Assembly: GCA_964016885.1 (NCBI GenBank)
Contig: OZ024742.1
Span: 322,214,001-322,278,000, forward strand
From: Eledone cirrhosa
Lineage: Eukaryota
DNA length: 64,000 nt
Reading direction: 5' to 3'
The position numbers were made by a program, and so were the translations under genes. Position 1 is the stretch's first letter; each line of letters begins with the position of its first letter. Shown here one piece after another: positions 7,406 through 52,156 of the stretch. The notes under the pieces were generated by a model. That model searched no databases and was not told the origin of the DNA. It was given only the letters and a program-made list of their open reading frames with translations.

Positions 7406-7526
7406 TTATTATATATATATATATATATATACATATATATACATATACATATATATACATATACATATATATACATATATATATATATAGAAAGATTTGA
7501 ATGGATACAGTTTAGTTGAAAGGAAT

Positions 7527-7643
7527 TTATTGACACGTGTTTCTATAACAGTTACATAACCTAAAACAGCTATCTACAAACTTTTAGTTATGCAGACATT
7601 CAATATTTCAATGTTATTATTTACTGTCATTTCATCAGAATAA
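7527..7643 (-). ncRNA. Hammerhead ribozyme in 3' pLTR (extended branched stem II)
   Basis: UUAUU CUGAUGA A AUGACAGU...ACUGUUAU A GAAA CACGUG UC^AAUAA. Confidence 0.85.
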
Positions 7644-8538
7644 TATTACTGAGGACCTGTTTAGTTTTTATAGAGAATATTAGGAGGGAGGGGTGAAGTT
7701 GTTAGAAGAATAGTTGAAGGAGTGGTTTTTCGATAGCAGTGAGAATTCTTGGTGGCAGTGAGTAATTAGATTCCCATCTGTTGTTTTGACATTTTTTATA
7801 GAATATATTATTGGTTATTTTTCTAAATCTATAGAAGGATTAGAGATAGTAAAGATATGCGTGGTTGGTTTTGTGTTTGCACTTAATTAACATTCAGACT
7901 TAAATTTTTCTTTCAAGTGTACGTATCCTTTCACCCACGCATTCACACACAAATATATTTGCACACTTCTACAAAATACATATACTCACAATTCACATAT
8001 TCATACTTACATATATATACACATGCATGTATTCATGTACATACATACGCGCTCATGTGTATACGTTTTCATACTCAACTTATCTTTATATACACACGTA
8101 TAGACACACACATATATACATACATACTCTAGTCCATGTGTACACACATACACATACTTACACATCCATATACTCATATATACATACATATATATATATA
8201 TATACATATACATATATATATATATACATACACATACATATACACACATATACATATATATATATATAAGCACTTTAATACATGAATACACTTACATCTA
8301 ACTATACACATCAAACATATATATATATTTACTTATTTATATACATTTTCACATATATATACATACTTATGGACGTTTTTAGACACATTCATTATCGCAT
8401 ATTTGTACCTATTCTCATCAGCATATCTTTTCATTATTAGTATGGTAATTTAAGGTTATTAATATATGTTGAGAAGAGATTGTTTTTATATTTTTCTAAC
8501 TAGATTAAGGTTTATATAGTTGGGGGATGTCCCTCTTT

Positions 8539-10860
8539 TTATGTAATATTCGGCTTGTAGTGGGAAAAAAGGGTTTTAGTTCTGTGACGGCAGAATAATG
8601 TTCGTTCAATTCTGTTATTCAGCAGTTTCTTCTTGTGTGTGATTATGTAATAAATCTCAAGATTACACAATTTGCAGAAATTTTGGCTCCTGGAAAAGCT
8701 TTGGGTTTTAGCTAATTTTTCCCATTTTAGGGTAAACTTTTGGTCGCTATCCCTGAGCGTCCAAGCTTTTTCTGCTAAAGTTGTTACATTTCTTTGGCTC
8801 TGGTGTTTTATTGAGTAAGAATGCCTATACAATCGAGATTTAAACAATGTTGCCGTTGATCCCACGTAATACCACTCGTTGCCTCCGGATTTAATGGTAC
8901 ACTTATAAATAATATTTTTTTCCAGGCAGTTATTGCCGAGGGGGCAGTTGTCAGGATAGGTGCAGTTACAGTTGTGTACGTTGGGTTTTCTCTGGAGTAG
9001 TATTGCGGACGAACTTAGGTGTGGTTTATTTATGTTCTGTAGTGTATTGTCTACTGTTTTTTTTGTGTTCTTTGTACTTAAGTTCTTAGTGTTTTCGTTT
9101 AACCTTCTAGTATTGATCTTTTTTATGTGTTGTTCAAGGTTTAACGCTGTAGAGTATGACAGTCTTATAGTGGTAGGGTTTAGGATTTTGTGGTATTTGT
9201 GTGATGTGGGAAAATGTCTTTTAATTATTTTAAAGAAGAGTACTGGTAAATTTGTACTAATGGAGCTATTGTATTCGGGGTTATACCATAAGTACTCTTT
9301 GCATCGCTTTCTATTAGTTTTGTTTGTTGGTTTACTGGTGTGCATACTATGGTAGTAAGTGTGGTTTGGTGTTGTGTTATTATATCTACCTATGTGGGAT
9401 TTATTTTGGGTGTTTTGATTGTTCCCATCTATGTACTCTATTTTGTTGAGGTAGCCTGCTTTACTAAGGGCGTTATCGTAGTACTCGGCGTGTTCCTTAA
9501 ATACTTGTATGTTAGAAGATAGACCCGAGATTCTAAGGGAAATATTTTTAGGGATAGATTTAATTATAGAGATGGGGTGGTTAGACCCAACATTTACGTA
9601 TTTGAGATTTTCGTTCAATTTATGAAACGGTTTAATCAAACCAGAGTTTAAATTGAGTGTGACATCCAGGAAGTTAACTACTTTAAGGTTGTATTCATAT
9701 GTTATAGTTAGTCCTATTTCGAGTAGTAGTTTTCTTATATCTTTGCGTAGTTTTTCTAGTTTTTGGTTATTAAGGTTTTTAGCTAGGAGGAGAACATCGT
9801 CGCGGTATATTCCGCCGTGGAGATTGCTGAATTTTTCCTGGAGTCTAAAGGCGATAAATAACCCCACAATATCAGTTATTTCCGCCGAATCGTTAGAGCC
9901 CATTGTTATGTCAAAGTTAGAGGGTCTATCTTTACGTACCCAATAACTGTTCTCAAATTTGACTATAGTTTTCCTAGCTTCTAATATAATCTTAATTTCA
10001 TCGTTTGTAAGGTCAGAGTTATCCTTAGCAAACTTAATGGCTCTATTCAAAGTTTCAGGTGATATCGATGAGTAATATTCATCGATATCAAACTGGATAA
10101 ACTTAGATTTATTCTTATTGCTAATGCTATTAAACCATCTTATTGCTTCTTGGGTCTTCCCCCAGAGTTTAATGTTAACCTTAGCCTTAATTTGGGGGAT
10201 GATTCTATCTAAGATATATTTGCTTATTTTACCTATATCTGATTTAGAGGGGCAGATTAATCTAATTTTAGGGTCATTATCAAAGTTTACCTTGTGGTCC
10301 TTAAGATTGAAGGTGGGTACCGCCGGTAAGAGTGGTCCTGTCCTATCTTCGATTCCGAGATTTTTCACTATTTCGCATGCCTCATCATTGATGTGCTTAA
10401 GGGTTACTTCACTCGTTTTTCTATATTTTTTATGTAATTCTTTTCGAATGAAGTTGTTGTATGTAGTGCAATCCATAGTGTACAGGTTTGATGTTTTGTC
10501 CGCTTTTACTACAATTCCTTTGGTGTTTTTAAGGTCGTCCAGTAGTTTTTTTATATCTTTCTGTAATTTGCTGTTGGTGTTGCGTCCTTTGAATTTAATT
10601 TTAAGGATTAAGTTCATAAGGTCCTGCTCAAATGCATCTAATAGTGGGTTGGTGGGTGGGTTTTTACAAGTCCTAAAACCGAATTTGTTGTTTACACCAC
10701 TTTCTAATGTTGAGTTCATACGGCTTCTATCATAGTGGAGCGTTTTCCACCTGACACGTCGAATGAATTCATTAGTTTTTTGAATCATGCTCAATAAATA
10801 TTCCTTTCTACCTTGGGTTGGTATGTTTTTGAGTGACATATCCAGGTAGTGTTTTTCCAT
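8539..10860 (-). CDS. PLE reverse transcriptase + C-terminal GIY-YIG endonuclease (773 aa, intact)
   Basis: KADK, K-x-HK..RLI, FDIDEYYSSI, MGS, YRDD, FLDV, CNC-CPL-CL, IIY..YVGST..R..H, C-x2-C-x2-E, LLN..CRH. Confidence 0.95.
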   Translation of the reverse strand: MEKHYLDMSLKNIPTQGRKEYLLSMIQKTNEFIRRVRWKTLHYDRSRMNSTLESGVNNKFGFRTCKNPPTNPLLDAFEQDLMNLILKIKFKGRNTNSKLQKDIKKLLDDLKNTKGIVVKADKTSNLYTMDCTTYNNFIRKELHKKYRKTSEVTLKHINDEACEIVKNLGIEDRTGPLLPAVPTFNLKDHKVNFDNDPKIRLICPSKSDIGKISKYILDRIIPQIKAKVNIKLWGKTQEAIRWFNSISNKNKSKFIQFDIDEYYSSISPETLNRAIKFAKDNSDLTNDEIKIILEARKTIVKFENSYWVRKDRPSNFDITMGSNDSAEITDIVGLFIAFRLQEKFSNLHGGIYRDDVLLLAKNLNNQKLEKLRKDIRKLLLEIGLTITYEYNLKVVNFLDVTLNLNSGLIKPFHKLNENLKYVNVGSNHPISIIKSIPKNISLRISGLSSNIQVFKEHAEYYDNALSKAGYLNKIEYIDGNNQNTQNKSHIGRYNNTTPNHTYYHSMHTSKPTNKTNRKRCKEYLWYNPEYNSSISTNLPVLFFKIIKRHFPTSHKYHKILNPTTIRLSYSTALNLEQHIKKINTRRLNENTKNLSTKNTKKTVDNTLQNINKPHLSSSAILLQRKPNVHNCNCTYPDNCPLGNNCLEKNIIYKCTIKSGGNEWYYVGSTATLFKSRLYRHSYSIKHQSQRNVTTLAEKAWTLRDSDQKFTLKWEKLAKTQSFSRSQNFCKLCNLEIYYIITHKKKLLNNRIERTLFCRHRTKTLFSHYKPNIT

Positions 10861-50552: not shown

Positions 50553-50596
50553 GTTAAGTCTGATCATGGCCGTGTGTGGCGTGAGATATAAAAAAT

Positions 50597-50775
50597 AATT
50601 GTTTCTACTTTTGGCACAAGGCCAGCAAATAACCAGTGTATTACTGGTACTTTTATCGACCCCGTAAGGATGAAAGGCAAAGTTAACCTCGGCGGGATTT
50701 GAACTCAGATGATAAAGTGGCGTAACTCTATGCTACAAAGGATGGCGTCCAACTCTCTACTGATACTGCCAATGG
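50597..50775 (-). mobile_element. SINE family A
   Basis: A box, B box and core. Confidence 0.85.
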
Positions 50776-52156
50776 TAGCGAAGGAGGTGAAGGTGGAAAC
50801 GGGGAAGGAATACATAATAAAAATGGGGGGTGGGGGCAGTAAGTAAAGTGAAAGGAAGAGTAAGTGTTAGTAGAAGTAAAAGAGAGAAAGAGAGAGAGAT
50901 TGTGTGTGATAGAGAGATAGAGAGAGTGTGTGTATGTGTGTGTGTGTCAGCAATAGAGTGAGTGTGTGTATAAAAGAATGTATGTGTGCGAGAGAAATTG
51001 AGATTATGTATGATAGAGAGATAGAGAGAGTGCATATGTGTGTGTGTGTAAAAGAGACTATGTATAGTAGTAGTAGTAGTAGTAGTAGTAGTAGTAGTAG
51101 TAGTAGTAGTAGTAGTAGTAGTAGTAGTATGAGAAGGAGGGGAGGGGGAGAAGGAGGAGGACGACGACGGGGAGAGGAGGGCGAGGAGAAAGAAGAAGAA
51201 GAAGAAGAAGAAGAAGAAGAAGAAGAAGAAGAAGAAGAAGAAGAAGAAGAAGAGGAGCAGGAGCAGGAGGAGGAGGAGGAGGAGGAGGGGGAAGAGGAGG
51301 AAGAGGAGGAGGAAGCTAGAGAGACGTCGAAGTTTCAAGTGAGAGAGTGCAACTTGAAAACATCAGTAGACCCTTGTTTTTAACCCTCAAAGTAGTGCCG
51401 ACATTTCTGGATTGGTCCCTACCCACCTTCATTTTTCAGGCTTGAAATGTCAGTCTGTATGTATGTATTTGGGCGTGTTTGTGAATGGGGTGAGGTACAC
51501 TGCTATTGACAGCGTCTGTGTGTGTGTGTGTGTGTGTGTGTGTGTGTGTGTGTGTGTGTGTGTGTGTGTGTGTGTGTGTGTGTGTGAATTTCGTACATCT
51601 AAAGATATACGGTATATTTAATAAATAAAGATTTTGAAAGCCACAGCTATGAATAGAAGAGTGACTGCAGCGCGGTCGAGCGGAGTCCAGCAGAAGCAAG
51701 GGGGATAATTGTCTATGCATTTCGAACTTAAATGGTTCTCATCATGACAATGCTTCCCTCTTCCTACTGCTGGACTTCAAGTGAGTGTAAATATATATAT
51801 ATATCTATATACATATATCTATCTACATACATATATCTATCTATCTATCTATATATATATATATATATGTATCACCACCCCACTCTCAAGAGCGTGAAAC
51901 TAATAAACCTTTGTTCGTACTGCCTCTCTGTTTTGTTCCCGTTCAAATTTTTACTATATATATAACGAAGGAAATGTGGTAAGGAACCAGGTGGACCATA
52001 ACGCACCAAAGTACTCAATACTTAGGGTAGTAGAGTGGGTAATAGGAACGAGTAGGACCCCGACGGCTGAGCTCAAATCTGGACTTAGCCGTCGAAACGG
52101 CTTGAGCTCAGCCGTCGGGGTCCTACTCGTTCCTATATATATATATATATATATAT

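Follow-up and report, generated by a model that had tools for sequence, protein, structure and literature searches.

Proximal and distal termini pair in Penelope-like retrotransposon insertions of Eledone cirrhosa: a case for twin priming at two fixed internal sites

Within a stretch of 64,000 nucleotides (nt) of the 3.0 Gb genome of Eledone cirrhosa (positions 322214001-322278000 of contig C3, hereafter the window; 36 % GC, many TA microsatellites), Penelope-like retrotransposons (Penelope-like elements, PLEs) are repeatedly found as two head-to-head arms of the same element with both 3' ends facing outwards. The elements belong, as judged from their sequence, mostly to the Hydra clade, together with one family of Neptune/Nematis type (K). 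One arm stops at a tail-less terminus on the proximal side (P), its partner at a tailed, distal one (D); the positions of P and D are fixed, and young families pair P with D. We consider it probable from the sequence evidence set out below that these insertions arise by twin priming at two fixed internal sites, carried out by one ribonucleoprotein (RNP) on one RNA.

A preliminary description of the window had singled out 14 such cases, and masked self-comparison and direct reading bore out their architecture throughout, that is, two head-to-head arms with outward 3' ends, of which one stops at P and the other at D (Table 1). The (TA)n flanks claimed for both ends were seen in most of them, but in four of them (14363/14700, 20537, 43088, and 55026) the flanks are imperfect or an arm is very short: at 14363/14700 a D arm of about 15 nt is followed by 15 non-TA bases, the distal end at 20537 lies in a short TATA within another element with no (TA)n run, and GA and GT repeats intervene at 55026 and 43088, respectively. 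Likewise, the families are unrelated as DNA, as had been stated, but A, F, I, and C all go with Hydra-type open reading frames (ORFs). The P-D spacing is fixed within the announced range of about 60-180 nt, with tails of 112-113 nt in family A, 79 nt in F, 79 nt in D, 94 nt in I, 63 nt in G, 65 nt in H, and 181 nt in C, and of about 58 nt in K. Independent copies do reuse the same two termini: the exact termini of family A occur genome-wide 1048 times for D and 1412 times for P (0 for reversed-pattern controls), and in tandem copies of this family both P and D continue into element sequence.

The pairing of the two termini is strict in the young families. An exact-pattern test for family A across positions 1-185.7 Mb of contig C1, complete for that region (100 P and 78 D termini; head-to-head within 20 kb), returned 42 exact head-to-head pairs, all of them P+D, as compared to about 49 % expected if the arms were independent (chance about 1e-13); since 94 termini had no exact partner, the paired fraction of 47 % is a floor. 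When mismatches were allowed, 11 of 16 D loci taken in genome order had a P partner and none a D partner, the other five being single or unresolved. Among 41 long A loci, 24 were inverted (all P+D; two of them also belong to the set of 42), 11 were single-arm (7 P, 4 D), and six were disrupted or out of range. Young family F contributed 18 pairs from 22 loci and family K ten pairs (by eye from BLAST rows, one complex locus being left out), again without exception P+D, and with A, F, and K the rule thus spans two PLE clades. For families F, I, D, G, and H, whose copies are mostly older, BLAST pairing over 1.75 Mb gave 75 pairs, of which 64 were P+D and six had an intermediate or cut end (+13 ends of family I were scored as P, and six of the 64 duplicate young F pairs). 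Loci L001-L030, picked by likeness to one whole inverted copy, were excluded from all pairing counts and used for junction variants only; redundant loci were also excluded from the 75-pair set, and family B, with its microsatellite-like P region, stands outside the counts. Neither scattered termini nor frequent same-type pairs, which had been named beforehand as grounds for abandoning the idea, occur in the young families.

The inversion junctions, by contrast with the termini, vary between copies. Family F shows 19 junction variants in 30 copies (L001-L030, a biased sample), which speaks against one fixed palindrome amplified as a unit. Of 39 resolved young junctions, 24 carry 1-6 nt of microhomology, six are blunt, and nine have 1-10 nt inserted, while three more were unresolved; the earlier proposal that the two complementary DNAs (cDNAs) are joined by microhomology is thus supported by the larger part of them. 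Most flanks are pure TA and therefore uninformative as to target duplication, but in seven young pairs the target has an interruption near the junction, and five of these show a duplication of 14-16 nt that contains the interruption. One older pair has a 13-nt target duplication. Such duplications imply staggered nicks with two 3' overhangs, the standard geometry of target-primed reverse transcription, and hence speak for the two 3' primers at the target that had been postulated.

The two arms of an insertion share a source, as comparison of their sequences indicates. Sixteen A pairs differ at 1.75 positions per 400 nt within insertions as compared to 4.64 between insertions (permutation p 5e-5), a figure that includes the outlier L263, and 17 F pairs at 3.6 positions per 50 nt within as compared to 7.4 between insertions (permutation p 5e-5). 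Near-identical arms and P+D pairing are, however, also predicted by self-priming, the published explanation for tailed inverted pseudo-long terminal repeats (pLTRs; PMC3846280). A D-primed cDNA would then copy itself (or an antisense template, PMC3846280), a nuclease would resolve the hairpin at P, a step to which PMC8557442 ascribes the tail, and later deletions would render the arms unequal. Such a fold-back would yield the near-symmetric palindromes that make up 27 of 56 short P+D pairs, with palindromic junctions, and 6 of 17 young F pairs. In 21 of the 56, however, the P arm extends beyond the D arm at its 5' end by more than 15 nt (the D arm reaches further in 8). The 24 long A pairs include no symmetric one (the closest differing by 127 nt), and in eight of them the P arm is the longer one, with no tail within. 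A P arm holding sequence that is missing from the D arm cannot come from fold-back of a D-primed cDNA without later deletion, which favors the two separately templated arms of the original proposal. Neither does fold-back account for the seven P-only single arms, in which P works without D, for D arms that stop at P (see below), or for a hot-spot 5' end that recurs even though the partner arm ends elsewhere. We thus regard it as unlikely.

The 5' ends of the arms cluster at about -58 in family F, -161 in I, about -167 in D, and about -143 in G. The F hot spot is what we take to be initiator-like, with a TATA-like word 29 nt upstream, and the hot spots may mark the 5' limit of the transcript, at which both enzymes would run off. 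Some F hot-spot junctions in L001-L030 carry an extra C or short additions past the common end, which is compatible with copying of a capped 5' end. In three young F pairs, both arms end no more than 12 nt apart off the hot spot (at about -360, -400, and -1190), which suggests one broken RNA. Moreover, 9 of 23 D arms ending between -45 and +65 stop within 6 nt of P (p 7e-4; the list was hand-curated, the range set after the data had been seen, and very short arms are under-detected), as would follow from an occupied P site on the same RNA. One RNA molecule may have served for both cDNAs, a reading on which the shared source and the stall at P bear indirectly. Alternatively, an asymmetric dimer might carry two RNAs from the same source locus, one subunit always using P and the other always D, each on its own transcript. 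This scenario would explain the P+D rule and, via cis preference, the shared source, and overlapping arms would need no strand displacement; neither the D arms stalled at P nor the coinciding off-hot-spot ends fit it, and we rate it as quite unlikely. Three F arms begin near the predicted hammerhead cut at P-17 (L068 9140, L050 2579, and L070 8578-8660), a weak hint that cleaved RNA may sometimes be used as template.

How the two sites are chosen is a separate matter. The preliminary description relied on base pairing, i. e., equivalent TA primers finding two built-in UA sites by annealing alone. In the element continuation at P, a TA alternation of at least 3 nt is indeed found in eight of ten families (background 6 %), and at D in all three families with known continuation. 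Family B, however, has just 2 nt and family H 1 nt at P, the latter lacking a built-in TA there altogether (CACT/TCTAC), contrary to the claim that both sites have one; the register slips at 4 of 32 A junctions; the untranslated regions (UTRs) concerned contain many more TAT words that do not serve as termini; tandem RNAs hold several P sites, yet no P+P pairs occur in young families; and an anole element starts at sites without target homology (PMC11167929). Annealing as the definer of the sites is thus very unlikely, while UA pairing likely assists priming without selecting them. RNA folding of the tails gave z-scores of -0.1 to -2.3 and no common structure.

For twin priming, we infer nicking, priming, displacement, and oligomeric state from these features as follows. 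The element nuclease would nick both (TA)n strands about 15 bases apart, and each 3' overhang would prime reverse transcription at one of the two sites, P or D, of the same RNA. A single RNP seated at one pLTR-tail, either a dimer or one enzyme acting twice, would load one primer at each site; where the two sites lie is likely determined by protein or RNA structure, with built-in UAU aiding primer pairing. The D-primed enzyme would then stall at the occupied P or displace the P cDNA and continue, and both cDNAs may run off a common RNA 5' end to give abundant short palindromic inserts. Finally, the two cDNA ends would be joined by microhomology or end-joining, and annealing of the second overhang to cDNA rather than RNA would lead to a single-arm insertion.

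Several observations weigh against this mechanism, in addition to the outlier among the A pairs, the makeup of the stall-at-P test, and the near-symmetric palindromes mentioned above. Most paired arms overlap, which requires strand displacement, an activity that PLEs are not known to have. Two of the seven informative young targets are without duplication. The 75 mostly older pairs include four P+P (L205, L215, L233, and L248) and one possible D+D (L194, interrupted); the P+P pairs belong to families that are about 5 % diverged and could reflect later tail loss. About a third of the resolved long A insertions (11 of 35) are single-armed, such that inversion, which had been put forward as the normal integration route, is common (24 of 35) but not obligatory. 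Lastly, an in vitro assay of Poseidon PAc from Anolis, within a scope that did not extend to pairing, found start-site use to be equal on both strands (PMC11167929).

That the arms stem from independent insertions, from trimming of symmetric pairs after insertion, or from assembly fold-back artefacts appears highly improbable. TA runs do draw repeated insertions, and family A is present in contigs of four other studies, none of which bridges the junction in the window. There is, however, no TA between the arms, and the uniform pairing (42 of 42), the target duplications, and the asymmetric arms argue against such origins, as does a D end running into TA that was found in an independent run (X1); trimming could account only for the few P+P pairs of older families. 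A DNA transposon of the miniature inverted-repeat transposable element (MITE) or terminal inverted repeat type is rejected in view of asymmetric ends, variable junctions, and the reverse transcriptase (RT) ORF upstream. Hammerhead cleavage is likewise rejected as the definer of P, with predicted cuts lying 17-76 nt before P in families A, F, I, G, and D.

In LINE-1 (long interspersed nuclear element 1, L1) twin priming, the RNA 3' end is the start of one cDNA and an internal site, variable in position, that of the other, which gives non-overlapping segments. In the present elements, by contrast, both sites are internal and fixed, overlap of the arms is the usual state, and inversion makes up half to two-thirds of insertions, while about 30 % of L1 insertions are inverted (PMC2912911). 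Microhomology and target duplication were found here as well, so that priming by both target ends on one RNA, microhomology joins, and a duplication of about 14-16 nt would be common to both systems (PMC2912911).

The formation of tandem and inverted PLE ends has been named an open problem (PMC8557442). Canonical PLE units (Pen2a_Av and Penelope of D. virilis; PMC3846280, PMC8557442) share the partial tandem pLTR, the inverted 5'-truncated copy, the one-ended tail, and the target duplication with those described here. Their tail, however, measures 30-40 nt and is called optional, whereas here it spans about 55-180 nt, and each of the young pairs counted carries it on one arm and one arm only; and the same papers propose self-priming or nuclease resolution, where we propose twin priming. 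Contrary to what the preliminary description had implied, the two termini themselves are not novel, for they correspond to the PLE tail already described (PMC3846280, PMC8557442) and to the internal RT start sites observed in vitro (PMC11167929). The latter were described for PAc, whose tail is delimited by two internal start sites; cutting and extension affect both strands, the enzyme is predicted to form a dimer, and hammerhead cleavage is unnecessary (PMC11167929). PAc starts in an AC-rich loop within the ORF, without target homology and at sites 30-40 nt apart, whereas the sites in Eledone lie in the UTR, mostly with UAU, and further apart.

In the literature searched, which left most subscription papers outside, there was no twin-priming proposal for PLE inversions and no tail-pairing count, and the passages considered from bioRxiv 10.64898/2026.07.22.740005 and PMC13282606 added nothing on termini. 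The strict one-tail-per-pair rule and the case for programmed twin priming thus appear to be unreported, although their component parts are known. In combination, the one-tail rule, the target duplications, and the stops at P link the question of PLE ends with the self-priming conjecture and the in vitro start sites, and they make sharp predictions for an existing assay, for which the very young family A with its many intact ORFs represents a ready reagent. It seems about evenly balanced whether programmed twin priming, by a dimeric RNP on one RNA at a staggered cut, is the main integration route of nuclease-bearing PLEs across clades. If so, the tail, the inverted pLTR, and short palindromic solo inserts would all be products of one reaction, by which a retrotransposon is programmed to enter two first-strand cDNAs into a single break. 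This would also explain many short TA-flanked palindromes that annotation could take for MITEs or microRNA hairpins.

The assignment to clades rests on the proteins. A Pfam search with the ORF of family A (773 amino acids) returned no match; by alignment, it bears all protein motifs listed for the Hydra clade (PMC8557442), which also shares with these elements the hammerhead and (TA)n targeting. The A ORF and that of family F (about 716 amino acids), which proved to represent the 3' end of another autonomous element of Hydra type whose tandem unit measures 3531 nt, are 43 % identical and each combine a YRDD core with a GIY-YIG-like nuclease at the C terminus in one frame. Family A has RWK and DKT, F has RWR and DKT, and both have the CxCX5C linker, CxxC, and CxH but no CCHH in the nuclease, as is also seen in family I fragments. 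Families I and C lie downstream of Hydra-type nuclease fragments, which for C includes a further copy at 1460-4229 with a Hydra-type nuclease end upstream. While Hydra elements are generally under 3 kb (PMC8557442), a soft criterion, the tandem units of A and F reach about 3.5 kb, and more than 1000 termini of one young family are present. The account of the clade in PMC8557442 (section 11) mentions neither termini nor their pairing. Family K has Neptune/Nematis-type cysteine motifs in the ORF at 22687-23613 (definitions from PMC8557442), and family G stands about 600 nt behind a K-like ORF end at one locus. Family A is very young, as all 150 scored matches are 99-100 % identical in the nuclease region, many within open frames of 785 codons.

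Type I hammerhead motifs were detected by motif scan in families A, F, I, G, D, and B (shuffle match rates below 1 %) and in none of C, H, K, and J, whereas an Rfam scan of the window gave no hammerhead but just sub-threshold microRNA-like matches among the 150 of 222 matches listed. In the F and G motifs, the core pair U3:A8 replaces C3:G8 (G at 24276-24310 of the window; F in the L289 pLTR). A family F array (L289-L290, C1:437198130-437210876) comprises at least four tandem 3531-nt units and an inverted arm, which implies that the template was circular or a long tandem. In another Hydra family, J, a near-full ORF is preceded by an inverted P arm (L035 6249-10000), and a second copy lies in L088.

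Table 1. Features of paired PLE insertions in the window (positions counted from its first nucleotide)
Feature	Positions	Strand	Remarks
Family A P arm	7490..11195	-	5'-truncated pLTR + tail, full ORF, 3' UTR; P end in (TA)n at 7489
Family A ORF, 773 amino acids	8539..10860	-	RT + C-terminal GIY-YIG-like nuclease; RWK, DKT, CxCx5C, CxxC, CxH
Family A inversion junction	11190..11195	.	6-nt microhomology
Family A D arm	11190..14114	+	5' truncation inside ORF; tail 14002-14114
Family A type I hammerhead motif	13845..13967	+	pattern scan, 0/300 shuffles; predicted cut 42 nt before P
Family B pair	14364..14707	.	long P arm (-) with hammerhead motif; D arm (+) of about 15 nt; imperfect distal flank
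Family C pair	17864..18367	.	P left, D right, tail 181 nt
Family B pair	20538..20824	.	D-type left, P right; distal end outside any long TA run
Family D pair	20958..21363	.	P left, D right, tail 79 nt; hammerhead motif
Family K, broken Neptune/Nematis-type PLE	22163..24074	+	ends at own D site
Family G pair	24100..24442	.	P left, D right, tail 63 nt; U3:A8-type minimal hammerhead motif
Family F short pair	39004..39198	.	D left, P right; palindromic junction at F 5'-end hot spot
Family H pair	39248..39448	.	P left, D right; 65-nt tail; P without a built-in TA
Family F pair	40776..40912	.	D arm stops at P site
Family I pair	40968..41239	.	P left (arm short), D right; 94-nt tail; hammerhead motif
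Family I pair	43088..43351	.	D left, P right
Family F pair	49224..49347	.	D arm stops at P site
Family F pair	51965..52133	.	D left, P right
Family H pair	55027..55191	.	D left, P right (arm very short); junction with slippage repeats

Throughout the window, different PLE families are nested in one another's TA flanks. Inverted pairs beyond the 14 cases are present at 17361-17690, 18520-18997, 25985-26514, 26907-27893, and 61719-62413, and another Hydra-type ORF fragment (6565-7410, minus strand; 36 % to A) adjoins the proximal end of the family A insertion. Copies of family B at 24690-25193 and 26721-26896 make up a tandem unit of some 430 nt, in which a hammerhead motif but no ORF was seen, much as in a non-autonomous retrozyme. 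Unlike the asymmetric PLE pairs, a TA-flanked symmetric hairpin element at 42849-43030 is probably a true MITE, and the nearby ORF at 41972-42460 is presumably mariner transposase-like. A long open frame on the minus strand (34163-38137) belongs to an apparently intact LINE with apurinic/apyrimidinic (AP)-type endonuclease and RT, which we take to be RTE-like by its motifs. The end of the window (63291-64000) is occupied by a tandem satellite that repeats about every 44 nt.

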